Virus record (IMG/VR): IMGVR_UViG_3300042539_000668
Coordinates: 4,002-68,001 of that record
Origin: a virus
Strand: one strand, 5' to 3'
Length of the DNA: 64,000 nt
How positions within the stretch are numbered: the first letter of the stretch is position 1; every line of letters starts with the position of its first letter. The notes beneath the pieces are model-generated. The model was not told the DNA's origin and did not search any database. It saw nothing but the letters and a program-made list of their open reading frames with translations. Made by a program: the position numbers and the translations under genes. This document shows, one piece after another, positions 12,695 through 59,700 of this stretch.

Positions 12695-13315
12695 AACGGC
12701 GGACGACACCGCCAGCCACAGGCCCCGAAGGGCGCACAACGTGTGGGACACCTGACATACTGATCCCCAGCAATAGCAGTATCGTTGGCCCCCCACGCGC
12801 TTCACCTTACGGGTGGAGTCGCCCTTCCGAATGGACGGCGGTCAAGCGTGTAGTGAGGAGGCGGACCTTAGCGACGACGATACGAGAATGCGGGTGGATG
12901 TTGGCCTTGGGAACCCTTGGCAACGTCCCCGCAGTCATGGCGAAAGCCCGATTGCTGCCTGCCAAGGCTCGGTTAGGAGTCTGGTACTGCGCTGGAAGGC
13001 GCGGTAGGTGAGGTTCGGGGGTAAAGGCAGCGCAACTAATGTGCGCTGAATTGTGCGATGAATATAGCGAAGAGACATTGGCAGCAATGCATCAGGGGAG
13101 GGCACTCCCCGCGCCAAGGACGCTCGGAGAGAGCGGCAATGCAAAGCGGTCAGTGATCAGTGATGGACATAGGTCGAGCGAGGCGGTGAATGCCCTGCCA
13201 TGATGGCCTCCAAAACTGCGCGATGAAAGAGTAGACGCACAAGCCAATACAGCGTGGAGGCACCAACCGAATCGGTGGTGGTGCGGTGAGGGGTTCGACT
13301 CCCTTCCCACGCTCT
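12695..13315 (+). ncRNA. Candidate large structured non-coding RNA ending in a tRNA-like domain
   Basis: No credible ORF; >12 hairpins, long-range helices, upstream TTG-N19-TACACTTG promoter-like element. Confidence 0.6.
13251..13313 (+). ncRNA. Minimal tRNA-like element 1
   Basis: AGCGTGG/CCACGCT stem plus 6-bp T-stem with TTCGACT loop. Confidence 0.6.
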
Positions 13316-13335
13316 GTTAGTGAATAATCACTAAC
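13316..13335. promoter_or_regulatory. Palindrome GTTAGTGA-ATAA-TCACTAAC (copy 1 of 5)
   Basis: Other copies at 13792, 14265, 15682 and 17311. Confidence 0.7.
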
Positions 13336-13358
13336 GTAACCAACCAACATTCAATACC

Positions 13359-13802
13359 ATGAACAACGTAGTGAAATCCGCCCAGACCGCCATCCGCAAC
13401 GCCGCCATCGAAGCAGCGGCCACAATCATCGCCGTCAAGGGCAAGTTGGCTCTTGTCATCCGCGAACAAGTGGAGATCCTTGAAGCAGAAGGGCTTCCGA
13501 AGAAGGAAATTGCAACGATCGTGCGCGAAGCATTGGAAGGCACGATCAAGCGAAATACCGTCAACGCCGCCCTCGCCAAGATGGGCATCCGCACCCGTGG
13601 AAAGCGCAGCGATGCAGGGCATCTGAAGAACGCCGACCGCCTGCTGAAGGAGTGCATGGAGCCAAAGAAGGCCCGCGCCAAGAAGGACGAGGAGGAGGGC
13701 GAAGAACAGGGCATGACCGCCGAAGAACTCGCGGAACTGCTCGCCTCCCTCGACCGCGCAGTGGTCGCTACTGCCCTGAAATTGGCAGGGATTAGTGAAT
13801 AA
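13359..13802 (+). CDS. First early gene, possible HTH DNA-binding protein
   Basis: GLPKKEIATIVREAL.GTIKRNTVNAALAKMG..TRGKRSDAG. Confidence 0.7.
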   Translation: MNNVVKSAQTAIRNAAIEAAATIIAVKGKLALVIREQVEILEAEGLPKKEIATIVREALEGTIKRNTVNAALAKMGIRTRGKRSDAGHLKNADRLLKECMEPKKARAKKDEEEGEEQGMTAEELAELLASLDRAVVATALKLAGISE

Positions 13803-13814
13803 TCACTAACGCAC

Positions 13815-13857
13815 AAGGTGGATGGTCGAAGGTGGGGTTCGATTCCCCACCCACCTT
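13815..13857 (+). ncRNA. Minimal tRNA-like element 2
   Basis: AAGGTGG/CCACCTT plus GTGGGG-TTCGATT-CCCCAC. Confidence 0.6.
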
Positions 13858-13886
13858 CAAACTCTCTAAACACAAACCTTACGACC

Positions 13887-14210
13887 ATGACAAAGCACGA
13901 AGAACTCGCAGCGTTCAACGCATTCATCAAAAGCCTGCCGCAGAACACATACCTGCGCCCGTGGCTCGCCTCCATCATGCCGGAAATCGAGCGCGAACTG
14001 CGCTGCGACATTTTCCCCGAACACACTCCCGCATCGTGGGCCGAGGCCGTGCGAAAGCAAGCGCAGGAAGAGTCGCAGCGCATCACGAACGCAGCGCATC
14101 GAGAGGCTGCGGTCATCCTTGATAATGCGCGGATGAAGGAGGAAGAGGTGGCGCAGAAGCGCCTCAAACTCCACAACGAACTGCTCCGCATGGCCAAGGG
14201 GCTGTATTGA
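13887..14210 (+). CDS. Early hypothetical protein
   Basis: 107 aa after an A/C-rich leader; helical C-terminus. Confidence 0.75.
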   Translation: MTKHEELAAFNAFIKSLPQNTYLRPWLASIMPEIERELRCDIFPEHTPASWAEAVRKQAQEESQRITNAAHREAAVILDNARMKEEEVAQKRLKLHNELLRMAKGLY

Positions 14211-14216
14211 CAAGTC

Positions 14217-14262
14217 AGGGGGCGATGGTCGCCCAGCACGGGTTCGATTCCCGTGGCCCCCT
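14217..14262 (+). ncRNA. Minimal tRNA-like element 3
   Basis: AGGGGGC/GCCCCCT plus CACGGG-TTCGATT-CCCGTG. Confidence 0.6.
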
Positions 14263-14303
14263 CTGTTAGTGAATAATCACTAACGCTAACCCAACCCAAC
14301 ATC

Positions 14304-14561
14304 ATGCAGACCGTTATCACCGCCAAGTACCGTGGACGTGCAGCCGATGGCAGCACCATCCGCAAGGGAGACCAGATCATCTACGACCGCACCACGCGCA
14401 CCGTGGTGAGCGCATCGCCGATAAAGGTGCGCGAGTTCCTCGACCGCCAGCACGATAGCTACGTGAGCCACGTCTTCAACTTCGGCGATGGCCGCGAATA
14501 CTACCGCAACAAGCGTGGACGCTGCGAAGATGCACCCTGCTGCGGCTGCTGCACCATCTAA
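14304..14561 (+). CDS. Early protein with C-terminal GRCEDAPCCGCC motif
   Basis: 85 aa with a Cys cluster at the C-terminus. Confidence 0.8.
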   Translation: MQTVITAKYRGRAADGSTIRKGDQIIYDRTTRTVVSASPIKVREFLDRQHDSYVSHVFNFGDGREYYRNKRGRCEDAPCCGCCTI

Positions 14562-14574
14562 CCTCAACACGACC

Positions 14575-14754
14575 ATGCTTACCAACATCTCCACCCGATA
14601 CTGGGCAGACCCCGCAGAGGCAGAGGCAGTAGCCGCCGATGCCAACGCAAACGACAACTGGACCTATGTGGCGGTCCACGACCCCAAGGGTACCGGGTAC
14701 TCCTACATCAAGGTGTACGACGAAAAAGGCCACTATGTCGGCACAATGTTCTAA
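14575..14754 (+). CDS. Early hypothetical protein
   Basis: 59 aa, bracketed by exact 21-nt direct repeats. Confidence 0.7.
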   Translation: MLTNISTRYWADPAEAEAVAADANANDNWTYVAVHDPKGTGYSYIKVYDEKGHYVGTMF

Positions 14755-14767
14755 CCTCAACACGACC

Positions 14768-14911
14768 ATGAACACCGAACGAATCGTCACCATGACCGAA
14801 CGAGTCATCGTACCCCTTGGCATCACCCTCGGCATCGCCCTTGCCATCGTATCGGCGTGGAAACTCACGCTGATTGCATTCGACGCTATTAACGCCCTCA
14901 ACTCCCTCTGA
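14768..14911 (+). CDS. Small membrane protein
   Basis: 47 aa with one hydrophobic helix. Confidence 0.65.
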   Translation: MNTERIVTMTERVIVPLGITLGIALAIVSAWKLTLIAFDAINALNSL

Positions 14912-14915
14912 ACCG

Positions 14916-15296
14916 ATGAAAATCCCCACCCCTCCCTACGACCTGACCGCGCCCGAACTCGCAGCGTGGCAGGAATACTACGCAATCGGCCACCGCAACG
15001 GCCACGGCATCGCTTGCCACAACGTCCCCCGCGTGGGGGACAAGATAGACCCAAGCGTGGACTACTGGGGTCTCGGCCCCAATGTCACCTTGGACAACGC
15101 CAAGGACTATCATCAGGCACTCTGCTATGCAGCAGAGGCCAACGCACGGGACTATTCGCCCTTCGAGTTCACCGCCAAGGAACTCAACGGGGAGACCCGA
15201 CTCCCTGCCGAAACGGCGTGGGATGCCTATGATTCAGGCGTGGCTGACGCAATCGGCCACGACCTCTCCTCCTACACCGACGAGGACTACCTCTAA
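14916..15296 (+). CDS. Early hypothetical protein
   Basis: 126 aa, C-ending codon bias typical of this region. Confidence 0.75.
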   Translation: MKIPTPPYDLTAPELAAWQEYYAIGHRNGHGIACHNVPRVGDKIDPSVDYWGLGPNVTLDNAKDYHQALCYAAEANARDYSPFEFTAKELNGETRLPAETAWDAYDSGVADAIGHDLSSYTDEDYL

Positions 15297-15302
15297 CATC
15301 AA

Positions 15303-15328
15303 ACGGGGGCCGCGCATCCATCACGCGG
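15303..15328 (+). other. Intergenic RNA-like motif ACGGGGG-stem-CATCC-N4-stem (copy 1 of 3)
   Basis: Other copies at 15707-15732 and 17917-17942, the last with compensatory stem changes. Confidence 0.6.
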
Positions 15329-15358
15329 ACAAACTCAACACTCAACACCCTCTGAACC

Positions 15359-15685
15359 ATGACAGTTCGCGAAATTGAACAGCAAGTGTTTCACCGAATC
15401 ATCACCGAAGCGACCGCCCACGGGTGGGAACTGCATTCCATCTATGATGGGATGGACGAATGGGTCTGCTACAGCCCTGAACACGCTTGGGAAGAGGCCA
15501 CGCAATTTGACGAGGCAACCATCCGTTTCCGCAAGCCCGGCGAACGAGGAAACAAGTGGCAGTACGCCGGAGTATTCGTTGTGTTCGGCAACAGCGGTGA
15601 CGATTTGATCACCAACTACCATGTGTCGCTGGACGCACCTATGGAGGCTGTTGACCAATGGATTGACAACACCTTCCAACCTTAG
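15359..15685 (+). CDS. Early hypothetical protein
   Basis: 108 aa. Confidence 0.75.
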   Translation: MTVREIEQQVFHRIITEATAHGWELHSIYDGMDEWVCYSPEHAWEEATQFDEATIRFRKPGERGNKWQYAGVFVVFGNSGDDLITNYHVSLDAPMEAVDQWIDNTFQP

Positions 15686-15754
15686 TGACTAATCACTAAC
15701 GATAACACGGGGGCCGCGCATCCTTCACGCGGGCAACTCAACATCAACACGACC

Positions 15755-15919
15755 ATGAAGTACCTGTTCCTCGCCCTCGCCCTGCTCATCGCCGCACCCA
15801 CCATCACCGCCAACGATGGCCCCGGCAAGAAACGCCGCTCCACCTACGGGGTTCGCAAGCAGCCCAAGAAGACCTCCTGCCGCAAGGCCAAGCGCATCCT
15901 CAACCGCCGCCATCGGTAA
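15755..15919 (+). CDS. Small exported cationic peptide
   Basis: 54 aa: signal peptide MKYLFLALALLIAAP, then a K/R-rich tail; below the track cutoff. Confidence 0.65.
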   Translation: MKYLFLALALLIAAPTITANDGPGKKRRSTYGVRKQPKKTSCRKAKRILNRRHR

Positions 15920-15982
15920 CATTTGGCAGTCTCATTTTGATTCCTACCTTTGACCCGTTCAACAACCAAACCCCAACAGACA

Positions 15983-16375
15983 ATGGACAAGCAGACCTAC
16001 ATCCTCATCGGACGCACCAACCCCTACCAAGCCCAGCGCAAGGGATGGGGCAAGCACACTCTGATTGCCGCCAACTACTACACCCTCACCCCTGAACAGG
16101 CCAGTGACCTGCTCATGTCGTACTGCTGCGCCGAGAGCGACAGCCACGTCTACAGCGACGATGACACCGCCGTGCTTTCCGGCGACGAGGTCATCTTCTC
16201 CAAGGGCGATATGGCCTACAGCGACGATGGCATCTCATGGTGGATGGTGGCGGCACAAGACCTCGACCACGCCGAAGCCAAGGCTGCTCTGCGCTACGGC
16301 CTGCCCACCTATATGGCCGAGGAGATCTACGCCAAGCACGCAGACCTCCGCCCTGAACCTGCCATCGAAGACTAA
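15983..16375 (+). CDS. Early hypothetical protein
   Basis: 130 aa; TACCTTTG promoter at ~15945. Confidence 0.75.
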   Translation: MDKQTYILIGRTNPYQAQRKGWGKHTLIAANYYTLTPEQASDLLMSYCCAESDSHVYSDDDTAVLSGDEVIFSKGDMAYSDDGISWWMVAAQDLDHAEAKAALRYGLPTYMAEEIYAKHADLRPEPAIED

Positions 16376-16384
16376 CATCCACCA

Positions 16385-16414
16385 GCCCCCGGCCATACGG
16401 GTCGGGGGCATAAC
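16385..16414 (+). other. Conserved intergenic hairpin GCCCCCGGC..GYYGGGGGC-ATAAC (copy 1 of 3)
   Basis: Other copies at 18857-18885 and 20125-20154. Confidence 0.7.
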
Positions 16415-16427
16415 AACCCCAGCACCC

Positions 16428-16799
16428 ATGAACTACAGCGCCATCTACTCCGAAGCAGCAGCAGCAGCCAACGCAGCCGAACGTGCTTGCACCCCGACCC
16501 CGATGGTGGTCGGCACTCCCTCCACCCCTTGGGGTGGCAGCATCGACCGCTCCAAGCCCACCTACTATGTGGCCGATGGCCCCTGCGGGTATGCTTGGGT
16601 CAGGATGAAGGGCAACACGCCCTTCGCCCGGTGGTGCAAGCAGCAGCGCATCACCCGCCCTGCCTACCCTACAGGGGTGAGCATCTACCCCAGCACCATG
16701 ACTCAGTCGCTGGAACGCAAGGAAGCGTGGTGCAACGCGTTCGTGGAGGTGCTGAAGAAGCACGGCATTGACGCATACGTTGACTCGCGCCTCGACTAA
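16428..16799 (+). CDS. Conserved phage hypothetical protein
   Basis: GPCGYAWV...QSLERKEA..AF..VL...GI.AY..SRLD pattern. Confidence 0.75.
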   Translation: MNYSAIYSEAAAAANAAERACTPTPMVVGTPSTPWGGSIDRSKPTYYVADGPCGYAWVRMKGNTPFARWCKQQRITRPAYPTGVSIYPSTMTQSLERKEAWCNAFVEVLKKHGIDAYVDSRLD

Positions 16800-16861
16800 C
16801 CGCCTGACGATGGCCCCGTGGCAGGGGCCGAAACCCTGCACCAGCAGGGTCGCGGAAGCCA
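16800..16861 (+). ncRNA. Type I hammerhead ribozyme
   Basis: ccgc-CUGACGA-U-ggcccc(guggca)ggggcc-GAAA-cccugc(acca)gcaggg-UC-gcgg; predicted cleavage after C16851. Confidence 0.85.
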
Positions 16862-16886
16862 AACCACCCGCACTAACACAAGTAGC

Positions 16887-17306
16887 ATGAACGCTCAACA
16901 GAAAGACCGTGACCTCGCCCAGCGCATCTTCGGCCCCATCGTTGCCAACGTAGACCAGTGCGACCGCATCGCCCGCACCCTGCGCCGGGCGCAGATGACC
17001 CTGCACCGCTGGGACGAAATGCTCTGCGGCACGGAATCAGGTAGCATCGAAGAAGCCGTTGGCCCTGATGGCCTGACATACTACATCTACCGCCCTGCCG
17101 GGTGGATGACCTCGGCTGGATGGGTGCAGCCCAAGGGTAGGCCCATTGCAGACCGCCGCAGCGGTGCCATCAAGCGGGTCATCATGGCCTGCTGGCAAAC
17201 GAACCTGCACTACTACCACCAGCCCGACCCGCGTGGATGCTCCCTCTATGTGAGCAGCACCCCGCTCAATGCCGAGAACTACACCAACGGAACCCCCTGC
17301 ATCTAA
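16887..17306 (+). CDS. Early hypothetical protein
   Basis: 139 aa with a QPDPRGCSLY motif. Confidence 0.75.
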   Translation: MNAQQKDRDLAQRIFGPIVANVDQCDRIARTLRRAQMTLHRWDEMLCGTESGSIEEAVGPDGLTYYIYRPAGWMTSAGWVQPKGRPIADRRSGAIKRVIMACWQTNLHYYHQPDPRGCSLYVSSTPLNAENYTNGTPCI

Positions 17307-17349
17307 CCCCTTAGCGAACAATCACTAACCCTCAACACCCCCAACACCC

Positions 17350-17565
17350 ATGGTAACTTTTGGAAACGCACCACGCTCAGACTTTGAAGAACTGCTGCAA
17401 GAACGCGCCAAGATGCGCGATGCCCTGCAAGCCGTATGGAACAGCAACAGGCTTAACAAGACCATGCTGCTGGGCGATGTAGGCCTTGCCCCCGATGGCA
17501 AGGTCACGGGCAAGTACCTCGACCCCCTGACCCAACAGGTTTACGAAACTCTCAACTCTCTCTAA
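17350..17565 (+). CDS. Early hypothetical protein
   Basis: 71 aa. Confidence 0.7.
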   Translation: MVTFGNAPRSDFEELLQERAKMRDALQAVWNSNRLNKTMLLGDVGLAPDGKVTGKYLDPLTQQVYETLNSL

Positions 17566-17576
17566 CACCCAACACC

Positions 17577-17858
17577 ATGATCAAGCTTCAGAAGGAAGTT
17601 GGCCTTGTCACGCCAACCATCAACATCAACGGGAGCGATGCCCGTGACCTGATGGATGCCCTCGACAATGCGATGCTCGCTCTGCACGATGCGTCCAAGT
17701 CATTGAGCAAATGCTCACCTCATGGCCGTGACTACTATTTGCAGGGGCCGGATGCGATCGGCCATGCCATCCGCCAGCACGTCAGTCGTATGCAGAGACT
17801 CGCTGACATTAGCACCGAGTTGATGACCATCTCTCTTTGCATTGCCGACCAGCGGTAA
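17577..17858 (+). CDS. Early hypothetical protein
   Basis: 93 aa with PTININGS and PHGRDYY motifs. Confidence 0.75.
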   Translation: MIKLQKEVGLVTPTININGSDARDLMDALDNAMLALHDASKSLSKCSPHGRDYYLQGPDAIGHAIRQHVSRMQRLADISTELMTISLCIADQR

Positions 17859-17963
17859 TTGTTGATAACTTTCTCTTGATAGGTACAAACCACTTTGTAC
17901 CTTTGCAACTCAACCAACGGGGGGAGCGCATCCGCAACGCTCAACACTAACACCTGTAGTACC

Positions 17964-18848
17964 ATGACAACTTTCGAGCAGACCTTCGCACTTTTGGAGA
18001 AGACCGGACTGAACTGGACCGTCAACAAGTTGCCCCTGTACGGGCCTGACGGGCAGCAGACCAGCAGCTACGGCATCTTTAGGAACGAGACCAACCAGCA
18101 CCTCGGCACGGTAGGCCCGCGCTATGTCCCCTTGCAGAACCACGAACTCGCCGAGACCATCATCGATGCCTGCGAAGGGGTCGGGATTCAGGCGACAAAG
18201 GGTGGCGTGTTCAACGATGGCCGCAAGGTCTACCTTCAGGCCGCCCTGCCTGACGTGGTCATCGACCGCTCTCCGCTGAAGCGTTTCATCACGGGCATCA
18301 ACTCGCATGATGGCTCCACCGCCATAGCGTTCGGCAGCACGAACACCAACATCATCTGCATGAACACGTTCCATATGGCGTACAAGGACGGGGCGATGAC
18401 GAAGTACCGCCACGGGGCCAGCGCGTTGGAGCGCATCAAGACCGCGATGATGCAGATCAAGGCCACGATGGCTGGTGACCAGTTGCTGATGGACAACTTC
18501 TCACGCATGGCCGATGCCAAGTTGACCGAGGAGGCAACGCAGGCCATCCTGACCACCATCTTCAAGCGCGGGTTCGGCCTCGACCCCAAGGACGAGTTGT
18601 CCACCCGGCGCAGGAACCAGCTGATCGGCCTCAACAACTCCATCGAGCGGGAGTTGGCTGACCAAGGTGCCACCCTGTGGGGGCTGTTCAACGGCATCAC
18701 CCGCTACACCAACCACGTTGCCGCTCCCAGCGGGCAGAAGGATGAGTACGTCATGGACGGCGCGGGGTACGACCTCAACCTCGTCGGGTTCGACGCGATC
18801 ATGGCGTGGGTCGAGAAGAACACCGCCAAGCAGTACGTCTTCGCCTAA
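17964..18848 (+). CDS. DUF932 (TIGR03299-like) family protein
   Basis: GLNWTV, LGTVG.RY.PLQN, NSHDGS, ICMNT, RH, TLWGLFNG.T.Y..H motifs. Confidence 0.85.
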   Translation: MTTFEQTFALLEKTGLNWTVNKLPLYGPDGQQTSSYGIFRNETNQHLGTVGPRYVPLQNHELAETIIDACEGVGIQATKGGVFNDGRKVYLQAALPDVVIDRSPLKRFITGINSHDGSTAIAFGSTNTNIICMNTFHMAYKDGAMTKYRHGASALERIKTAMMQIKATMAGDQLLMDNFSRMADAKLTEEATQAILTTIFKRGFGLDPKDELSTRRRNQLIGLNNSIERELADQGATLWGLFNGITRYTNHVAAPSGQKDEYVMDGAGYDLNLVGFDAIMAWVEKNTAKQYVFA

Positions 18849-18896
18849 CACTAACCGCCCCCGGCAATAGGGCCGGGGGCATAACACTCAAGAACG

Positions 18897-19181
18897 ATGG
18901 AACACACAACACAAGCCATGAGAGCAGCACTTGAGATTGCTGCAACCGTCAGCCCCAATGTCTGCCGATGGGTTGTTCGCCAAGGTCGCAACACAGCGGG
19001 AACCCCATGCTTCCCCGAACTGACCACGGAGAGCCACATTAACGCAGAACTGGCGCAGAAGATTCAAGAAATCTGCGATAGGTACGAGTGCCGATACTCT
19101 GCCATGCCCGTGCAGATTGGCACAACCTTCACCGGTAAGCCCTTCTTGGGCATCACTTACACGATTGTCAATCTTAAGTAA
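18897..19181 (+). CDS. Early hypothetical protein
   Basis: 94 aa. Confidence 0.7.
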   Translation: MEHTTQAMRAALEIAATVSPNVCRWVVRQGRNTAGTPCFPELTTESHINAELAQKIQEICDRYECRYSAMPVQIGTTFTGKPFLGITYTIVNLK

Positions 19182-19193
19182 CACCCAACACCC

Positions 19194-19469
19194 ATGAACA
19201 GCAACGACAACTTTGATGCCCTTTGGGACAATTTCCGCACCGCTGTGGCCGAGGCTCGCACCCCAGTTACTGTGCATCAACCACCCACCGTGCTGACCTT
19301 GCGGACCAAGAAAGGCCCATCCGCAAGCAGCGACTACCACCACGAAACCTCCATTGAAGTCTGCAAGGACTCGATTATGATGGTTCGCGGCGGTGCGCTG
19401 ATGCGGTGCCATCTCAGCCGCGAAGAAGCCCTGCAACTTGCCGCCAACCTCGTAGCCATTCACTCCTAA
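19194..19469 (+). CDS. Early hypothetical protein
   Basis: 91 aa. Confidence 0.7.
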   Translation: MNSNDNFDALWDNFRTAVAEARTPVTVHQPPTVLTLRTKKGPSASSDYHHETSIEVCKDSIMMVRGGALMRCHLSREEALQLAANLVAIHS

Positions 19470-19481
19470 CACCTAACACCC

Positions 19482-19691
19482 ATGTCCAACCACATCAACA
19501 TCAAGCAGCGGCATGGTCTGCCGACCAGCATCAGCGTTACCACCTACAGCCACCGCGATGACCAAGCGATGATGCACGTCAGTTCTATGCACTTCAGCGC
19601 GTTCTGCCACGACCTGACCGCTGAAAACCTGCGCGAACTTGCCGCCATCTGCATTGCCACCGCCGATAAACTTGAAACCCCAGCACAATGA
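19482..19691 (+). CDS. Early hypothetical protein
   Basis: 69 aa. Confidence 0.7.
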   Translation: MSNHINIKQRHGLPTSISVTTYSHRDDQAMMHVSSMHFSAFCHDLTAENLRELAAICIATADKLETPAQ

Positions 19692-20116
19692 GAACCATCA
19701 CATCCATCGCCATCCTGCTCACCACGATGGCACAAGCACAGGTGACCAACGTCCTGACCGACCTCGGCAAGAGCCACAGCCCTGACATCAACACCGATGC
19801 GTGGTACGTGCAGGGTAAATCTGCCATCCTGCTCAAGAGTTCCACACCAGTAGGCGTGATGCAGACCGTGAACGAATGGGTTGACATCATGGTGGCCGTG
19901 GAGAACAACTACCAGCACATCAAGCAGGTCAAGAAAGAAGTACTGCTCCCCTCCTACTGCGATGGCATCAAGGACTATGGTTGCGTCAGCACAGCCCTGC
20001 GGGCAGAGAGCGCACAGATACTCGTGCGTGACGTGTTCACAACTGGTCAAGACACCATGACACTCGTCCTCAAGATGGGTAAGGATTACAGCAGCGTGAC
20101 CTTGGTAGGATGGTAA
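19688..20116 (+). CDS. Exported hypothetical protein
   Basis: Signal peptide MRTITSIAILLTTMAQA-Q (Bacteroidota-style Gln after the cleavage site). Confidence 0.7.
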   Translation: MRTITSIAILLTTMAQAQVTNVLTDLGKSHSPDINTDAWYVQGKSAILLKSSTPVGVMQTVNEWVDIMVAVENNYQHIKQVKKEVLLPSYCDGIKDYGCVSTALRAESAQILVRDVFTTGQDTMTLVLKMGKDYSSVTLVGW

Positions 20117-20164
20117 CACTAACAGCCCCCGGCCATATGGGCTGGGGGCATAACATCAACACCC

Positions 20165-20659
20165 ATGAACAAGCAAGAAGCACTCGACATACTTGAGCCT
20201 CTCAAGTGGTCACCCAACAAAATAGGTACTGCGTTCGACAGCGCCGAGAACTTCATCGGAGAACACGCAGAGGGGTACATCATCATGGCCCAGCACCGCG
20301 ACAGCGACAGCCTGTCCCGTAGCAACTGGGAGGTGGCTGTGAAGATGTTCCCCGATGCAAAGGTGGTGCGCTACCGCCATTGGCTGGTGGGCTGGACAGA
20401 GCAACTGCTCCTGTCCCTCGATGCATCCGAAGAGGAACTGATCAGGGCAGCGCAGATGCGCGAAGACCTCGATGACTACCCCGTGTTGGATGAACAGCAT
20501 TGGAGCGAACTGGAGTACAGCGATGCGTGGGAGTATTGGGAGAGCCTGTCCCTGCGTGAGCGCATCGAACTCTGCTCCCACCACCGCGTGTCCATCTTCG
20601 CCGCCCGCCGGGATGAACTCCCCGAAACACCCACCGGAGAACTCTGCACCTACAACTAA
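20165..20659 (+). CDS. Conserved phage hypothetical protein
   Basis: HRDSD.LSRSNW...HWLVGWTE...L.DYPVLDE pattern. Confidence 0.75.
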   Translation: MNKQEALDILEPLKWSPNKIGTAFDSAENFIGEHAEGYIIMAQHRDSDSLSRSNWEVAVKMFPDAKVVRYRHWLVGWTEQLLLSLDASEEELIRAAQMREDLDDYPVLDEQHWSELEYSDAWEYWESLSLRERIELCSHHRVSIFAARRDELPETPTGELCTYN

Positions 20660-20709
20660 TGTTGAAAAATCGTGCAAGCAAATGAGCAGCAGCATCTATA
20701 TTTGCCCCC

Positions 20710-20992
20710 ACGTTCTTTCAGACATAGCGGTTTCCCTGACCACCGCGCCCGAACATTCAGGCAAGATAAAAGGTCAGCACACCGGAGCGTCCAACGTCAT
20801 AAACCCCTGCGCTGTCCTACCAGCCGACAACAGGGTGCCCATGCTCGTGAGAGTTCACAGCACGTTGGTCAGGCATCACAGGGCGATGCAGTCTCAAGGG
20901 TGGATGGTGGTTTTGCCACCTGCAACCTATAAAGGCCAAGTTTGCGAAAGCAAGACCCCCACGGAATACATGGGCATAGGGCTGGGTGTGTC
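20710..20992 (+). ncRNA. Candidate structured ncRNA / 5' leader
   Basis: Follows TATATTTG (~20697); nested long-range helices and tetraloop hairpins; no phage-like ORF. Confidence 0.5.
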
Positions 20993-21014
20993 AAATAACC
21001 AAACTCAACAGACA

Positions 21015-21239
21015 ATGAACATCACCAACGACCAACCGAAGTACTATCGTGACGGGTACAACGACCAAGACAACAGCTACACCGAGTACCTTGAATGGAG
21101 GTATCTCAAGCAGAGCTGGGTCATGGAGCGCATCGCCATGCTGGCAATGCAGATGACCGAGCCGGGTATCTCCGAGCGCAGCAAGCAACTTGGTAGCGCC
21201 CGCATAGGGATGATGCTCTATGCGATGGAGAACTATTAG
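21015..21239 (+). CDS. Hypothetical protein
   Basis: 74 aa from the ATG after an A/C-rich leader. Confidence 0.65.
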   Translation: MNITNDQPKYYRDGYNDQDNSYTEYLEWRYLKQSWVMERIAMLAMQMTEPGISERSKQLGSARIGMMLYAMENY

Positions 21240-21265
21240 TGCCAACTTGTTCTATCTTTGGCCCC

Positions 21266-21499
21266 ATGCCAAAGACATACAGACCAGACCTAATACTCCG
21301 AGTGAACAAACTACGCCATGGCATCGAGCCTCAACCGTTCGCTGCTCTTGCCATAGCGATGCCATCACTAAAGGAACTCGCACCGAAATGCAGACGCATC
21401 CTCTGTCGTAAGGTGTACCCCGGTGATGTCCCACTAATCGAGCGAATGGAACAAGCAAAACTCAAACTGGATGAACTACAAAATGATGTGGCGCGATAA
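21266..21499 (+). CDS. Hypothetical, possible DNA-binding protein (leaderless; first gene of the replication operon)
   Basis: TATCTTTG 21253-21260, 5-nt gap, ATG. Confidence 0.65.
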   Translation: MPKTYRPDLILRVNKLRHGIEPQPFAALAIAMPSLKELAPKCRRILCRKVYPGDVPLIERMEQAKLKLDELQNDVAR

Positions 21500-21665
21500 G
21501 CGCAACCCTTCTTCATGGGGAGAGGGCAGGAGCGTGTCAAATGAAGACACAGCGTTCAAAATCTGCAAGAAGAACAACGAACTCTTCCCCGAATACGAAC
21601 ACTGGTACGAAGTACAAACAACTAAAAACCGCAAAGACAATGGCACGAGGGAGCAACAACAATGA
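21483..21665 (+). CDS. Hypothetical protein
   Basis: 60 aa overlapping both neighbours. Confidence 0.55.
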   Translation: MMWRDKRNPSSWGEGRSVSNEDTAFKICKKNNELFPEYEHWYEVQTTKNRKDNGTREQQQ

Positions 21666-41593: not shown

Positions 41594-44500
41594 CTACTTT
41601 TTACTCCTCTCGTACTTTTCAATCTCCTGCGCCGCTGGCCCCAAGCCTCTTGATTTTATTCTGTCTGACATCTCCTTTGACTTGGCGTTCAAGGAATCTA
41701 TCGTTTTGACAATTTCATCAAGTTTTATTTTCCCTGACTTGTATGTTGAAAACGCCCATTCTGATTGCCCAGCAGCATATCTGTGAGCTTTATTTAGCTC
41801 ATCCTCTACTTGTTGAGCCGCTGCCGAGTTTTTGCCACTTGTCTTTTTTTCTTGCTCTGCCTTTGATATAATGTTTTCGTACTCTTTCAACACTCTATTT
41901 CTGTAAATAGCCTTTGTCAGCAGAGATGACTTGAATTGCTCATCCTTGGTAAGTTCAATCTCTGCGCTTCTTCCAGCAAGTGGCTCCCCTTCACCAAGCA
42001 TCCTTTGAACCTTTTCAATCCGTTGCGCCCTTGGCGTAGCCTCAATAAAAGTATTTGCATACTTCCAGCGCAGATTAACTTCAGGATAGTCATCACTGCG
42101 CTCATCAATGCTGGTGTAGTTCTTCCAAAAGTTCCTGATCGGGTCAATTGATTCAAACGGAAGACCATATTCATCGGTCATTTCATTGGACACAATATGG
42201 TTTAATCCATAGATGCTAGAGAACAAAGCCTTGCTTGTTCCCAAGAATCCCTCCGGCATATACTCACCCTTCTTGGTGGCTCCAGCCATGGAAGCAGCGG
42301 TACTAACCACATCCCTATAGATGGCTGGCTGGGCAATGGCAGCAACAGGACTCATAAACATCCTAGCAAATCCAGCCCCAGCATCATATTTGAACGTAGA
42401 CCACAGGCGAGGGATGGTGGCAAATGATACCTCACCCATTGCAGTTAGGGGAGAGTCGGTAAAGTATTCGTAAAACTCTGCCTTTTTGGGTATTCTTCCA
42501 CGCCCAACTACAGGTTCTGCGTAGAGCTTGTTAACGTCATCAGATATGCGACCAAGCCAAGCAACTGGGATGGTCATGTGTGGAGACAGCCGAACCGATG
42601 TCCAGTCGCTCCACTCGTCATCCTTGCCAAACCTAAAGCGAATGGAGAAGTTTGACCTTCCCTCCATAATTCCTTGGTTCTTGCTCTTGGAGCCACGAGC
42701 ATCAGCAGTAAAGTCAAACACCCTATCGGGGTCCATTTTAATCCTGACCTTTTTACCGAACAGGTCGTAAACATCCTCTGCCTCATCATCGTCATCTGCA
42801 TCCTCCACCTCAAACGTATTTATAAACAAGCCAGCAATTATCATAGTTGACAGCACATTCAATGCAACCCTTCGACCCATTTGCATATTGGCAAACTCCG
42901 GGCTTTGTGCATCGCTTGTTTTGCTTCCCCACTTCCATTCTCCGTTCGCCTTCTTTGCCAAGCCATACTTTGCAGCAGCATAACCAATAATGGGAATGGT
43001 TGACTGAATTTCGCTGACACCTTGGGCCGTGATACGCAAGAAGGGCAGAATGCTAAGGTTGAGAGCAAGTTTGCCAAGCGCAGAAACAAAGCTGTCCCTC
43101 TCACTAATAGCCATTTTTTTGCTGCTCTTGTCCCACACATAACCAAGTACACCATCGGGACGCCACATCATAATCATGTCTGCTGACATCTGATCAACAG
43201 CGTTGGTCATTTCTGCATCCCTCTTTGCCCTCATTATCTCGCTCGTCCTTCGACGCAAGTAATCCCGTGGGATGGAGACGCCGTCCGATTCCATTTGGTC
43301 GATTTCCTCTTGGGCTTCCTTGGCTGCTTCGGTTCTATCCTTCATGGCCACCCCAGCCATCTCATCAATCTTGTTGAACAGCTTCTTGCTAATGAACGGA
43401 GTCCACGCTTCAACAATTGATGGGTCGGCAGTGCCATCCTTCACCATGCCGCGCATCTCATTCTTCAGCTTGATGTAGTCTTGCATTCCCTCCATGTGAG
43501 CGGCAAGGCTGTGGCGAAGAACGGGGTCAATGAATTTCAGAAGAGCAGTAATACGAGTGGCCTGAGCCGATGCAGATGCAAGCAGCATCAAAGCACCCTT
43601 GGTCTTTCCAAGAGCAGTAGGGTCGTTCTTTACCCTGTTCCATTGCTTGAAGAAACCATTCAAAATGTGAACCTCAAACGGGTCTGCGTAGGTGCTTGCG
43701 TTCTCAACGGTCCAACTTGTACCCATTGAGTCGTATGCGCTTTGATTGAACATACCCTTGGAGAACGCAGTTGGCATCTCCTTGAGCATCCTCATCATCC
43801 CATAGATGTTTGCGCCAATGGCCGTGCTTGGGTTTTTGGCGCTCATGGCAATGCTGTTCATTACAGCATTGGGTATACCAGTCAGGACACTACCCACAAA
43901 GGCGTTCTGCAACGTACTGATACCCGAAAGCACGGCGTTGTAGAACCACGACTGGAAGATTATCATCCACTTTACTGCGCTCTTAGGCTCACGGGACACC
44001 TGCTCCAAGTACTGGTTCAGTCGCTTGGCGTACTTCTCACCCATCTCCTTCTGTGCAGGGATGGCGCTCTTGTCATCTATGCGATAGCGAATGCCAGCGA
44101 AGTACTCCATTGCCTTGGCCATGTGTTCAATGGCCTTGCGGTCTTGCGTGGTCAGGTAGTTACCACCAGTAATTGCAGCGAACACAGAGTCAAAGTCGGG
44201 GTCGTTCAGTTTACCAGCCCCGGCAAGTTGCACCAGCTTTGCAACAAGGCTTGCTTTCTTCTTGGGAGACAACTTGTTCTTCGCAAGCAGCTTGTTGATC
44301 GCCTTCAGGTCATTTACCTTCTTCTCAAGAGCAGCAGCTTGTTTCTTGTATGTGTCGCGCTCGGCAGCAATCTTGTCCTTCTGCTTCTTTAGCTTGCCAA
44401 TAAGCCTGTTTTTGTTATTGATTTCTTTGGTAAGGTCAGCAACTTGTTGAGCATAGCTTGCTGCATTTGCAGCGGCAGAAGAGTATAGCTTGTTTACCCC

Positions 44501-47500
44501 TGCAAGAAGTCCATCAAGACGCTTGATTTCATCCTCAAGCTCGGTGATTATCTCATCGTATATCTTGGGGTCTCCAATCAGTTTGCTTGCGCTTACGGGG
44601 GTTGGTGCATCAAGGGGAGTGGATTCTCCAGCGGCAACCTTTGCAGCGTGTATGTCCTCCATCGCGTCATTGACATCCTCCGCAAGGTCAACCACCTCCT
44701 TGATTTCCTTGTTCTCCTCCTTGTCCAAGAACTCCTCAACCTCCTCCTTTGACTGCTGAATGTCATCGGCAATGGTCTTGCCCTTTTCCGAACCCTCTTG
44801 GGACTCCAGCTTGCCCTTGAACTCAAGGTCGATTTTTTGAGCAATGACCAACTGGGCAAACTTCCCATACTGGCTGTAGACTTCATTCAGCGCAGCGTTC
44901 ATCTGACCCATCTGCCTTGCCTTGATGGCCATGTCCATGACCATCTTGGCTCGGAGGTTGGCAATCTCCTTGCGGGCTTTCGCTGACAGCTTCTTGCTTC
45001 CAGCATACATATCCAAAGCAGCGTGAAGTTCGCCATAGGCAACAACACGAGAAACACCATTGGTCACCGACTGGACATCAGCATAGACTGCCTTGGCCCA
45101 CTCTACAGGCGGCAGGTCTGCGTACTTGAAGTAAAGCTCGGCCACATAGTTCCTTCCTTGGTCAATGGCCAAACGGTACTCTTGGTCAGTCTTGTATGCT
45201 TCTTCGTATCCAAAGATGGCATCGCGCTCTTCTGCACGGGCTGGGTCACCTTGGATTTTCTCGAGACGACGACGGGCTACAGTGATGATATTGCGGGTAT
45301 CCTCTGGCGTTGTAGGAGGAAGTTCATCCTCCTTCCGCTCTACTATTTCTCTGCGCCTTGGGTCAAACCTTCCATAGTTGCCCGTTGCGGACTTGATTTG
45401 GGTGGGGCCGAATACGATATAAGAGTCTTGCGGAACTCCGGAGTATTCAACAGCATTCAAATACACTATACCGCCATATCCCTTAGAAGTTATTTCATCG
45501 GCCAATTCGGCCATTGTGGCGGCATCGCTGTCCCAAGAAAGCTCTTCTTTTATCTTCTTGACACTTCCCCAGTTTCCAACGTCCGGCAGGCGCAACAACT
45601 TTCCAGTAGAGATGTAATACGCCCCTATGTTGGCTCCGCTTGCGAAAGCCATTCCGGGATAGGCCCGATCCGCCGCTGCCTTCAATTCGGACAACGCGGA
45701 TAGCTCATCTTTAGTGGGCTTGTATTCATACTCTTCAAGAACGGCGCCGATGCTTTCTCCGCTCTTGATTCTGTCAAGAATTGCAGACTGCTCTTCGTCT
45801 GTCGGCTGCCTCCGCATATCCCTTAAGGTATTTGCATATTCAACAGCCTTTGAACGCGCTTCATAGTATTTATTCTCAAGCCTTATAAACTCCTGCTTAT
45901 CGGATTCTGACATCCTTTCGCCAGTAGTCATCTCAAGGCGCGACTTGGCGGCGTCTATATCCCCAAAATGAAACCCAATGTGCGCTCCTCTTGTTTTTTT
46001 GAATGCCCCAATATCAGCGTGAGTGGCATGGTAAACCACGACAGGTCTGCCTTGTTTGTCTTTTGGCCCCTTGTAAAACCTCCAAAAGTTCCGCACACCC
46101 TCTACCGTAGGATGGATGGGTCGCCCTTCGGAGTTGAACACCGTGCGCTCCTTGCCGTCCACCGTCACGGTCTTGGTGTCGCCGACAGGGGTCTTTGGCT
46201 CTTCAATACCATTGAAGGCTTCATCCTCCTTCCGCTCCATGACCTCGCGGCGTGGCTTTGTTTCCTGCTTTATAAGTTTTCCGCTACTTGATACAATTTC
46301 ATCAAATTTCTCTTTGTTAACCCTATTGTCCTCATACCAAGGTTGAGTTCTGTTAGAACCATTTTCATTCGTGCTAACCTTAAAACTTGATGGAGCGACT
46401 GAGTTCTTGCCCTTTTTCTTCACTTCATTGATCATTTTTGTGTATTGATCAAGAGTGAACTTGTATTGATTTCCCTTTGAGTCAGAATATATTTTATAGC
46501 GATTTCCGTTCTTGTCAATCGCATACTCTGTACCATAAGCATATGAGCCATACTCACCCTCCTTGGCCGAAACATCGGCAAAGGGATTTTTCTGACCCTT
46601 CACCTCATTGAGAAGGGCTTCAAGTGTTTTGTGACTTGCTTCCTGTCCACTATGTGCAACCCAACTTTCCCAATGCCAACGACCGGGAGTTGCTTTAGTT
46701 CCTTCAGGTCGAAGCCCCTCCTTAATTAGCTTATCAAATATTGCCGGGAGTTTTTCTTTCAGCACCGACTCTATTGGCTCATACAACAACAGCCCTCTTA
46801 CTCCAGTTGTCAAATCAGCAAGTCCACTTCCCGGTAATTTGCCACTTACGGCAGTAAGATTGCCATCGCTATCGTCAACAATTTCCTGAACCTTGAGTTG
46901 ATCTTCTTTAGAAGAACCTAGCCACGTGTAGATTTTTTCTTTTTTAGGCTTGCCATTTTTCGTTAATACAGGATTGCCTTCTTTGTCCAGCACGGGCTTT
47001 TCAGAATAATATCCATGCCTTCCAATTCCATCATACAAATTATAGTCACCAAGCCTCCCATCATTAAATGTGTTGTCAATCTGTACCCTGTCAAAAACAG
47101 CTACATCGGGATGGCCTATAACAAGCAACGTGAATGACATTACCTTGTTGTCAATGCCAACGCCTTGACTCATCTTTAGGAACTCTCGGCGAATTTCTTT
47201 GCCTGTCTTCTTTGGGTCACTAAACAAATCGTGAAGTGCCTGCATCCTTGTCTTTCCGTCAGGACCAATTTGAGCCATTTTCGCCATAAACGAACCACCA
47301 AAAGCATTTGCGTTGTGAGTGGTTCCTGCACCCGGCTGGCCAGTACCCTTCTTGATTGTATCAGACACTATTTCATTCCAAGCCTCGGCATCAGCCTTAG
47401 TAAAGGTTCCGTTGACAACCTTGTCAACAAATGGACCAAGCGGTGACACAAGGTCTACAAATGCAGATTCCTGTACATATGGAGAAACGCCCCTTGACAA

Positions 47501-56787: not shown

Positions 56788-59700
56788 TTACTTTATAGGT
56801 TTGAGTTGCCCGCTAATTGAAATAGCCGACTTGTCTTGGTCAGTATTCCAGATCAAACGGAGGTAAAAATAACGCTTTTGTGGGAGTTTCCTACTCGCAT
56901 CATAAGTTGCAAGGGTTCTGCTTGCCCATCCTTCCCATCCGTCGTACTCCTTAACCCACAACGGGGAGCCGTTGGTTACAGCATCCATGCGGGACATGAC
57001 CACAAAATCGGGGTCAAGGATTTCAATGGCATCAGGCTTTGACCCCGTAACCCTCCAGCGCAGGAACTCCTTGAATGTATCAAATGGCAGATTTTGGTCG
57101 CCCACCATCGGAACGGTGATGGATGCCTCCCTATTGTTGTTAGAGATAGTCCACCCTTGGTCAAGCAAGTAGGTTTCAAGCACATCCCCGTTGCTCCTGT
57201 GGCCGTAGACATCGTTGGCCACCTGCGTATACCCGTCGAAATCGTATGTGTACAGCCCGTTCCAAGAGTTGGTTTCGGGGTTGAACACCACCAGCCTTCT
57301 GTTCTCCCTGCCGTTCTCGTCAACTATGCCATTGAATGACATCCACGCCTCGTTGTATTTGGCGTTGTAGAAGCCGTTAGTGCCGGGGACATAGCCACGG
57401 GGATAGTTGCGGATGATGGGAAGCATATACGCAAGGAACTTCTCTCGGCCAATGTCGATGATGTTGTCGCCCACCATCCGATACAAGCTGTTTCTGTTGG
57501 CCCAAAAGAAGTTGTCCGCGTATCCATCACCCGTGGGAGCGTAGCCCTTGACGAACGCCTGCCACATCTGATCAGGAATGCCGATGTTGCGGGACAGCCA
57601 CATCTCCTGACCCCAGTAGTTCTCAATGGCTTGGGTGGAGATTTCCTCGCCCGATGCACCCGTAAGCACGTTCTTGCTGGTGAGGATACGAGCCACCCCA
57701 TTGTCAGTCCATGCGTAGATGTTTCGGCCACCACCAGCAAGCGCAGAGGCGATGGTCTTGATTTCCCCGTTCTCTTCGCTGATGGTCTTCAGCGTGAGTT
57801 CGGTGAACGTCCGTAGGCTTGGAACATCCTGCACAAGCTGGTTGAACTCGGCAGATGCTATGAGTCCCGTGGGGAAGTAGAACTTCTCCTCAAATGTCCC
57901 CCCTGAACTTACAAACGGAACGCCAAACCCAGTGATGGGAGCCTGCTGAATGTAATTTGGATTTACATCTGAATTTAACAGAAATCCACCATATGAAGAA
58001 GCGGCTACGGTGTTTACGTTTACGCCAGCTACGGGATCATATTGATAAAGATTAGTGCTTACTTCATTCCCCAAATATGCACTCCATTTCAACAAGTATC
58101 CAATTCTAGGCCATTCATATGGGCCTTGAGTTCCAGCACTAGCTTGATATCTTCTTATTGCTGACCTTTGCTCTGCATCCCAATAAACCACCCATTGCCT
58201 TTTTGCGCTCTGCCCAAATGTTTGGGTGTCCATAGTTATATTATTAGGACCGGGGGCTATATTTGGTACATTATATTGATTTTGTTTGCCCCATACTCGA
58301 TATGGCATAGGAAGGCCATCCAATGCAAATGATTGGTTAATTGATTCTGTAGAAAAGAACGGAATGGTTTGTGTAATTACAGTAGTTCCTTCAAATTCGG
58401 GTGGCTGCGCGTTAAAACTCCTATTGTAATATGCGTTCAAAGATGGGGATACCGTACAATCGCCACCGAAGAACTTGATTGGCTCGTTGTTATCATACTT
58501 TACAAGTATTCTGCTTCCATTTGAAGGCATTGGAAGACCGTTCTCAACAGGGAATTCAGAGTCTGCATTGGCCCACCAGCGCCCAAACTCAACCGTACCG
58601 CTCCGGTATTTCTCTCCAGTTGATAGCCACTCGTTGCCAAAAACAAAGCTGTATACACCATAGATGGGAAATGGCCACCCCGGCAACTGATACTCTCCCG
58701 TGGTGTTCAATGCTGCTATGATTGCAGCTTGGTTGTTATTGGCCCAACCGTTGTCTGTTACGCATAGCCATGGGCGGACTGCCTGACCGTCATCAACCCA
58801 AACATATCTGTTTGCTGCTGGGTCGCCCACAGGAAGAACAAGACTTGCGCCGTTGCAGTATACGTCACCCCTCCTCTCATTTAGCAATGGGAACTGCTGC
58901 CATTCATTTTCCAATTGAATTGCAGAAGGGGTTACGCCAATGCAACTCTCCACCTTAATATGATACCCTGTCTCAATGTATTTATCTACCTGATCATCGG
59001 GAATGGTAGCGTCTTCTTGGATGATGTTTACCACATACCAAGGTTCGTGAAAATCTCTTGTGGCGGCAGAATTTGCGCTTTCGTTCGGGTTAGAATTAAG
59101 ACTAGTTGCAGCATAAACACTCTCTGTTAATACTACTCGATATCCACCGTCGCTATTTGTATTTACGTCTTGTATATTAAAAACTTTATTTCCACCTCCA
59201 AAGGTGTTCCACAATCCAACTCCATTAATATCTCTCCATGCGCCATATCCAACATAATTAAATTCTCCTATTCCATTTCCATACGCATCTATGGTAAGGC
59301 CATTATTTACTTGATTGCCATTGTCCCATTGTATTCCAGCATAAGAAAGAAAATCAGCCGCCCCTGATTGAAAAGGACCATCAATAAGTACTTGCGTTGT
59401 TGCTCCTGAATACTGCTCTGTATAAAACCCCAAAGGAGAAACAAGCTGTATTTTGAATAATGCTGGATTGCTTGTAAATGAATCAATTATTGACTGATCA
59501 ACAATGTTATTGTTGAAGTCTGGAATCATTACCTCTAACCAATTTGGTGTTTTTTCGTAATTATTGCCAATAAATGGAGTATTGCCTGATTGAGCCATGC
59601 TCCAGCAAGCAATTCCTTGAGCCACAACCCTTTTTGCTGGCTCTGTACGCATTACAGAAATTACAGATGTATTGCTTGGTATTTTTTCAATACCTTCAAT

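Follow-up and report, generated by a model that had tools for sequence, protein, structure and literature searches.

A predicted type I hammerhead ribozyme of a phage and prophage subclass, placed at a stop codon in a lake phage operon

The DNA analysed here, which we call the window, is a stretch of 64,000 nucleotides from a 68-kb virus record whose genome recurs in lake-water metagenomes (24 runs are listed, RNA runs not being among them). From its sequence, the source looks like a divergent crAss-like lake phage. Between about 13.3 and 29 kb the plus strand carries a block of many small ORFs together with a DUF932 protein and a DnaB-like helicase, and it is in this block that the element of interest lies, between two genes. 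The upstream gene (about 16413-16799, +) matches phrog_22149 (E 4.6e-6), and tblastn with its protein gives three weak Roseobacter phage matches. The downstream gene (16887-17306, +) encodes a protein of 139 aa without known family, for which tblastn finds no match and the protein atlas no usable one. Pfam and PHROGs searches of the neighbour proteins return phrog_22149 and DUF932/phrog_1221 only, the helicase is the sole PHROGs match among the large ORFs, and blastn of 15900-17900 against GenBank phages gives no match. Nothing in the analysis supports the label “early” that the original prediction attached to the two flanking genes; for the helicase-containing block as a whole, the term is plausible. 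The minus strand has a block that encodes very large proteins, among them one at 56788-61569 in which a crAss-virus muzzle domain is recognized (PF25731, E 2.3e-16) and another, of 2755 aa, encoded at 41594-49861 and featuring an ART-PolyVal domain.

Read directly, positions 16799-16868 (+) spell out a complete type I hammerhead. The TAA stop codon of the upstream gene occupies 16797-16799, and its final A16799 is position 1 of the family model described below, an unpaired outer stem I position. The 5' strand of stem I, CCGC (16800-16803), leads into the catalytic core residues C3 to A9, CUGACGA (16804-16810), and these are followed by an extra U (16811) between A9 and G10.1. Stem II then pairs GGCCCC with GGGGCC over 6 bp (16812-16817 with 16824-16829), with G10.1-C11.1 at its base, around loop II, GUGGCA (16818-16823), in which UGGC (16819-16822) forms the 5' strand of a pseudoknot. 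After the core residues G12, A13 and A14 (GAA, 16830-16832) comes stem III, in which ACCCUGC pairs with GCAGGGU over 7 bp, A15.1-U16.1 plus six more (16833-16839 with 16844-16850), the two strands within 16833-16850 being joined by loop III, ACCA. C16851 is C17, and the cut is predicted 3' of it from the hammerhead consensus. The 3' strand of stem I, GCGG (16852-16855), is followed by A16856, which lies opposite A16799, by a spacer, A16857, and by GCCA (16858-16861), complementary to the UGGC of loop II and identified by covariation as the 3' strand of the pseudoknot. The downstream gene's leader is 35 nt long and CA-rich, and its remaining part (16862-16886) contains no Shine-Dalgarno sequence; start codons in the window generally stand behind CA-rich leaders that lack one. 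Neither a sigma-70-like promoter nor a terminator was found beside the ribozyme, and no T-run follows it.

The combination of CUGACGA and GAA fits the conserved hammerhead core C3 U4 G5 A6 N7 G8 A9 ... G12 A13 A14, and the C, U, G, A, G and A columns of the first segment are invariant in the alignment of 62 hammerheads (A1) introduced below. Three helices of 4, 6 and 7 bp surround this core, with G10.1-C11.1 and A15.1-U16.1 as closing pairs, and the 16 stem pairs besides A15.1-U16.1 are all Watson-Crick. U16850 is followed by C16851, so that position 17 at the predicted cleavage site is H (not G). Stem I is open at the 5' and 3' ends and loops close stems II and III, which is the type I topology. 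The minimum free energy (MFE) fold of 16790-16870 reproduces this three-way junction exactly (-32.2 kcal/mol, z -2.2). The reverse strand gives a comparably good fold, without the hammerhead core. When 201 nt of context are folded, the stem I pairing gives way to other pairings and stems II and III stay.

The original prediction had described a type I hammerhead with a full core, an extra U16811 ahead of stem II, a start directly at the upstream stop codon and a cut after C16851 that would leave a 35-nt leader before the ATG at 16887. Rereading the sequence bears out each of these statements, and every coordinate then given is correct. It had also called the stems perfect, which is true of them as they were drawn and needs qualification in light of the family: stem I there has five positions, the outermost of which is C-G or U-A and is unpaired in only 4 of 110 rows, and in the window this position is an A-A mismatch (A16799/A16856) that keeps the spacing of the family.

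Such an arrangement is not readily obtained by chance. A descriptor scan of both strands of the 68,001-bp genome returns the ribozyme site and one loose 170-nt match with stems of 4, 3 and 4 bp. Among 300 dinucleotide-preserving shuffles of the genome there is no match with stems of at least 4, 6 and 7 bp, and a single one at 4, 4 and 5 bp. The Rfam hammerhead models, proposed originally as a check, yield nothing: there are no matches in the whole window at gathering score, none in the 261 nt of 16700-16960 at E values up to 10, and, when E values up to 5 are allowed in the 8.6 kb of 13000-21600, just two, isrO (22 bits) and tRNA-Sec (21.1 bits), both away from the ribozyme. The type I and type III hammerhead models (RF00163 and RF00008, respectively) describe the same ribozyme class and do not match the window. 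We do not count this blank against the ribozyme, because the same models miss evident relatives. Eight related viral loci with about 30 evident hammerheads give no Rfam match, and a permissive search of one locus with seven evident type I hammerheads (L063) gives just three hammerhead matches, all sub-threshold, namely two to RAGATH-1-hammerhead (34.8 and 28.6 bits, with a gathering score of 56.3) and one to Hammerhead_3 (20.3 bits). In the way they were run, the Rfam models are blind to the hammerhead subclass of the window.

Relatives were sought with an exact 17-base pattern (the core with its U, and the stem II/GAAAC junction), which is found in at least 119 viral contigs of IMG/VR. Because chance alone is expected to produce matches to such a pattern at about the observed rate, each matching locus was checked individually. 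Of the 120 loci examined with a descriptor, 70 proved to contain complete type I hammerheads, 104 in total, including seven in L063 and four each in L054 and L120. Sixty-two hammerheads, the window's included, make up alignment A1, from which the covariance model R1 was built. A search of loci L002-L101 with R1 gave 113 matches, all from other viral contigs and none from the window, and these form alignment A2 (110 distinct rows) and model R2; a minor circularity lies in the fact that the A2 rows were gathered with R1, whose training rows included the window. With filters off, R2 gives the window site 69.4 bits (E 1.7e-18) against 13.0 bits for the runner-up in the 64-kb window, and R1 gives 72.2 against 11.9 bits for the next best. 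Neither model, filters off, finds further hammerheads in the window, and the genome thus has a single copy where many relatives have 2-9 per locus. The same pattern occurs in at least 120 stretches of bacterial genomes, of which 80 (L121-L200) were searched with R2; among these listed loci, family members are present in only 7 (20 matches), mostly Clostridia and Bacillota assemblies, one of them with nine copies in 8 kb. Since so few of the 80 pattern-matching bacterial loci score, R2 is not keyed on the search pattern.

The covariation seen across this family provides a test of the proposed structure. Over the 110 distinct rows of A2, 89.6% of cells are paired, as opposed to 64.9% in shuffled alignments, and 22 of 23 pairs have changed on both sides; 0 of 500 shuffles reach these values. 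Sliding the partners by 1-3 columns lowers the pairing to 31-40%. Stem I is paired in 98.2% of cells, with changes on both sides at 5 of 5 pairs, and stems II and III are paired in 96.4% and 89.9%, respectively. These figures are favoured by the fact that stems I to III belonged to the model used for aligning; the pseudoknot was absent from that model. Its helix is paired in 69.1% of A2 cells, a figure lowered by the difference in register between members with loops of 6 nt and those with loops of 7 nt, and all five of its pairs have changed on both sides. In a register-free test, a pseudoknot of at least 4 bp starting no more than 2 bases from stem I is available to 59 of 103 distinct members; with loop and tail partners permuted (n=1000), the proportion is 26% (maximum 36%), and a looser variant of the test gives the same answer. 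The helix occurs as 35 different sequences, for example UGACU/AGUCA, UAGCU/AGCUA, GGGA/UCCC and GUAGGAC/GUCCUGC, the UGGC/GCCA type of the window being the commonest with 11 members. All three stems and the pseudoknot thus covary in the family, and for the pseudoknot the support is independent of the model. What had been noticed originally as a pairing possibility between loop II and the tail of one sequence is now backed by covariation across relatives.

The members share a stem I of five positions, a CUGANGA core with one extra nucleotide, a GC-rich stem II, a GAAAC stem III, and a loop II whose partner in the 3' tail lies one or two nucleotides past stem I. Judged by these traits, the subclass to which the window hammerhead would belong is a large one, carried by phages and prophages. 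C17 is C in 110 of 113 A2 rows. The extra nucleotide after A9 was counted only in the 32 co-resident members that the pattern had not selected, the pattern itself having required the extra U, and it is present in 23 of them (12 U and 11 G) and missing from nine. Five otherwise regular A2 members (L014:860-928, L014:1784-1852, L035:8524-8594, L049:2316-2385 and L054:8736-8802) have a variant core in which position 4 is C (CCGAUGA or CCGAAGA for CUGAUGA).

Insertions at this point of the core have precedent. The CChMVd (+) hammerhead features an extra A between A9 and G10.1 that slows trans-cleavage moderately; C or G in its place is strongly detrimental, and with U instead of the A the rate rose 3-4 fold (De la Pena and Flores 2001, as cited in PMC3705267). 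Penelope-like-element hammerheads, too, are described with an inserted nucleotide between A9 and 10.1 (PMC4209133). The window element resembles these in where its single inserted nucleotide stands within the core. As presented in these sources, however, CChMVd and the Penelope-like elements provide ribozymes of a viroid and of eukaryotic retroelements, with other topologies and tertiary contacts, and unlike in those systems the insertion in the phage subclass is nearly fixed as U, and sometimes G. The RAGATH-1 or PK hammerhead (RF03152; crystal structure, PMC11300833) has in common with the window element a hammerhead core and a pseudoknot made by the helix II loop. According to the structural account, its helix II is about one pair long and the helix II loop has its pairing partner in the loop of an additional hairpin upstream (PMC11300833), whereas the window has a stem II of 6 bp and a loop that pairs with a single-stranded 3' tail. 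An upstream hairpin of the RAGATH-1 type is absent, the coding end of the previous gene being found there, and RF03152 has no match in the window; going by the published description, the element falls outside RAGATH-1.

The same locus can be followed in related phages. Relatives of the upstream protein occur at 18 metagenome loci, and R2 with filters off finds a hammerhead in the four closest (95-96% protein identity). In two of these, L362 and L363, none of the 70 ribozyme nucleotides differ, as against 34 of 386 positions of the upstream gene in both and 66 and 68, respectively, of 420 positions of the downstream gene. In the third, L364, the ribozyme is free of substitutions and differs only in loop III, where 2 nt are inserted; 39 of 386 positions differ in the upstream gene, and just 80 positions are alignable in the downstream one. 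The fourth, L361, has three substitutions in the ribozyme, two of them G-to-A changes in stem III (16847 and 16848) for which the opposite strand shows no compensation, and differs at 24 of 386 upstream and 26 of 420 downstream positions. In L361 (1961-2275), moreover, 297 nt that carry an additional small ORF are inserted between the hammerhead and the ortholog of the downstream gene. The same R2 search finds no hammerhead in this slot of the other fourteen orthologous loci, 13 of which have at least 140 nt of sequence downstream. At 64% identity, L365 has a slot without the ribozyme, and one sees there instead three short tandem repeats and a GC hairpin (about 1900-1928) of the same type as those behind three other stop codons of the window. 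In L001, where the upstream gene has a relative at 38% identity, that relative is not followed by a hammerhead. In another ortholog-bearing locus, L376, an apparent type II hammerhead with the C4 variant is seen one gene downstream of the ortholog (about 2263-2325). The related viral loci, with the exception of L001 and L029, do not share the flanking genes.

Contigs from four lake-water DNA runs were also compared with 16000-17800, and those of runs X3 and X4 are used here as evidence. One contig from run X3 crosses the ribozyme without a difference, and one from run X4 (16334-17299) is missing 24 nt from 16835 onward, a deletion that takes away the predicted cut site together with stem III and the GCGG strand of stem I. 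Because none of 70 positions differ in L362 and L363, as compared to 9-16% in the flanking genes, selection acts on the whole element, core and tail. Purifying selection is thus clear for part of the population, and in other parts the element is dispensable or lost.

The position of the window hammerhead relative to coding sequence is characteristic of its family. Among family members, 83 of 114 start between -15 and +5 nt from the stop codon of an ORF on the same strand, in comparison with 14 of 114 when opposite-strand ORFs are taken and 53 of 570 when positions are drawn at random. In 25 members, the UGA of the core is itself the upstream stop codon, and across the family the median distance from the model end to the next start is 19.5 nt. 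Since most members abut a stop codon and in these 25 the core UGA is that codon, a terminating ribosome would unfold the ribozyme, and this would allow a coupling of translation and cutting. We considered whether the placement might amount to proof of such coupling and rejected it as proof, because short phage spacers and a leader requirement could yield an equal asymmetry. After the cut, CCGC at 16868-16871 could pair with GCGG at 16852-16855 and give the 3' product a 5' hairpin. Such hairpins of at least 4 bp are available in 74% of the family, against 57% in a swap control (maximum 64%) and 61% with reversed tails; among the 51 stems other than GCGG the count is 33, where the control averages 26.1 and reaches 35 at most. 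We consider this excess too small for a 5' hairpin to be claimed.

Other structured elements lie behind stop codons of the same operon. A motif of about 27 nt, ACGGGGG-NNGCG-CAUCC-N4-8-CGCNN, occurs at 15298-15332, 15702-15736 and 17912-17946 (+), a few bases behind three stop codons, and its stem covaries between the copies. A 15-base pattern for it finds at least 120 loci in IMG/VR; among the matches listed, the 3' arm is exactly complementary in 115 of 126, with 11 arm sequences. It has no Rfam match, at gathering score in the window or at E up to 5 in 13000-21600. GC-rich hairpins of 9-10 bp followed by AUAACA stand right behind stops at 16385-16409, 18857-18881 and 20125-20149 (+), with z values from -4.2 to -4.8. 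A 21-nt near-perfect hairpin or palindrome, TTAGTGA-ATAA-TCACTAA, is present in five copies between plus-strand ORFs (13317-13337, 13792-13812, 14266-14286, 15682-15702 and 17311-17331, +), one of them overlapping a TAG stop; a hairpin in the RNA, an operator and a phage-polymerase promoter are all conceivable functions. Three tRNA-like folds, at about 13251-13313, 13817-13866 and 14198-14263 (+), consist of an acceptor-like stem and a T-arm with a GGUUCGAnUCC loop (z -3 to -4.6), and each adjoins a copy of the 21-nt hairpin. ARAGORN finds no tRNA in the window, and at these folds Rfam offers only the tRNA-Sec match of 21.1 bits (14196-14262); they are possible RNase P/Z processing signals.

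The slots behind stops in this operon thus hold four kinds of element, these being the ribozyme, the 27-nt hairpin or knot (three), the GC hairpins (three) and the tRNA-like minihelices with their 21-nt hairpin. A tentative reading, which we hold to be somewhat improbable, is that the hammerhead is an interchangeable gene-end module of a phage-operon punctuation system, with a protected upstream 3' end as its main job and not the preparation of the downstream message. The GC hairpin that occupies the ribozyme's slot in L365 speaks for such interchange, and the placement of 83 of 114 family members at a stop codon fits the same reading. That the main client of the ribozyme might be the 3' end of the upstream cistron is suggested by L361, in which the ribozyme stays at the upstream stop despite the insertion.

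Taken by its sequence, fold, family membership, covariation and conservation, the element is a genuine hammerhead. We consider it highly probable that 16799-16868 (+) is a functional type I hammerhead of the phage and prophage subclass whose predicted cleavage splits a polycistronic message. The cleavage itself, the nature of the RNA ends and any effect on expression we infer from what is known of the family, chemically and biologically. The element would be transcribed within the plus-strand polycistronic message and fold co-transcriptionally, the pseudoknot docking stems I and II in parallel. Transesterification would then cut the RNA after C16851, and because only 4 + 4 base pairs join the products, these should part after the cut. 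The upstream cistron would end a few bases past its stop codon in a compact ribozyme fold with a 2',3'-cyclic phosphate, and the downstream cistron would begin with a 5'-OH and an unstructured, CA-rich leader of 35 nt. The predicted cleavage would most likely cut one long message into separate pieces, and the two resulting messages could differ in stability and translation.

One might instead regard the window element as a decaying or weakened copy, with an active ancestor, inefficient cutting in the present lineage and at most a stable hairpin pair left at the gene end. The A-A mismatch at the base of a 4-bp stem I could be read in this way, as could the 24-nt deletion and the two uncompensated stem III changes (L361) among close relatives and the single copy here versus 2-9 per locus in many relatives; in the work reported in PMC3088659, moreover, altered stem lengths around the pseudoknot lower activity by orders of magnitude. 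We judge decay to be unlikely, as the core bases, G10.1-C11.1, A15.1-U16.1, C17 and the pseudoknot are all intact, the mismatch preserves the family spacing, and the element is free of differences in L362 and L363 amid flanking genes that have diverged by 9-16%. Still less probable, in our estimation quite improbable, is a gene-end structure that works independently of cleavage, in which two GC-rich hairpins serve as a 3' stabiliser, pause site or terminator and the core is incidental. Plain GC hairpins do stand behind other stops of the block (those at 16385, 18857 and 20125), and the 64%-identity ortholog has one in the very slot. Such a structure, however, leaves unexplained the 13 invariant unpaired core bases, C17 and a pseudoknot that covaries over 110 distinct sequences, and as a terminator it would lack a T-run, the terminator scan listing nothing at this position.

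A chance resemblance in GC-rich DNA must also be weighed, as very many windows were read, such that a few chance motifs are to be expected, and Rfam is blank at the site. Against it stand the 300 shuffles without an equal, the 16 Watson-Crick pairs beyond A15.1-U16.1, the score of 69.4 bits with the family model, the conservation in relatives, and an intergenic site and sense strand that are typical of the family. We regard chance as refuted for practical purposes. The preferred reading of the element, then, is that of a functional, message-splitting hammerhead, and it is from this reading that we turn to what is known of such ribozymes in phages.

Perreault et al. (2011; PMC3088659) report pseudoknots in all three hammerhead topologies and in about 40% of hammerheads, supported by mutation and rescue. 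Several of the prophage hammerheads they describe flank genes of varying identity, and phage and prophage hammerheads cleave polycistronic transcripts of about 2 kb in vitro and in E. coli (PMC3088659). As far as that account goes, the window shares with those ribozymes the core, the three-stem junction and the open stem I, the covarying pairing of the stem II loop with sequence attached to stem I, and the intergenic position in a phage operon with inconstant neighbour genes. It differs in having one copy and not a cluster, and in its host, an uncultured lake phage with crAss-like proteins and not a prophage. For the exact subclass, with its extra U, CCCGC stem I and A-spacer tail, the comparison is with the text of PMC3088659. 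An extra nucleotide after A9 and pseudoknotted, gene-flanking phage hammerheads are both already in the literature (PMC3088659, PMC3705267, PMC4209133), and both are traits of the family.

The single element adds little in itself, hammerheads that punctuate phage operons having been known since 2011. It belongs, on the reading preferred here, to an abundant subclass, marked by the extra nucleotide, the CCCGC-type stem I and the pseudoknot between loop II and the tail, that goes unseen by the Rfam models as run, and annotation pipelines will therefore miss its members. The purpose of hammerheads in phage operons is still described as open (PMC6765202). The strict placement of family members at the upstream stop codon is a testable hint at function. 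The locus described here, moreover, amounts to a natural allelic set, comprising an intact ribozyme, an insertion in the loop only, two stem III mismatches, a 24-nt deletion and a replacement by a hairpin, and such a set is well suited to asking what the ribozyme may be worth to the phage.
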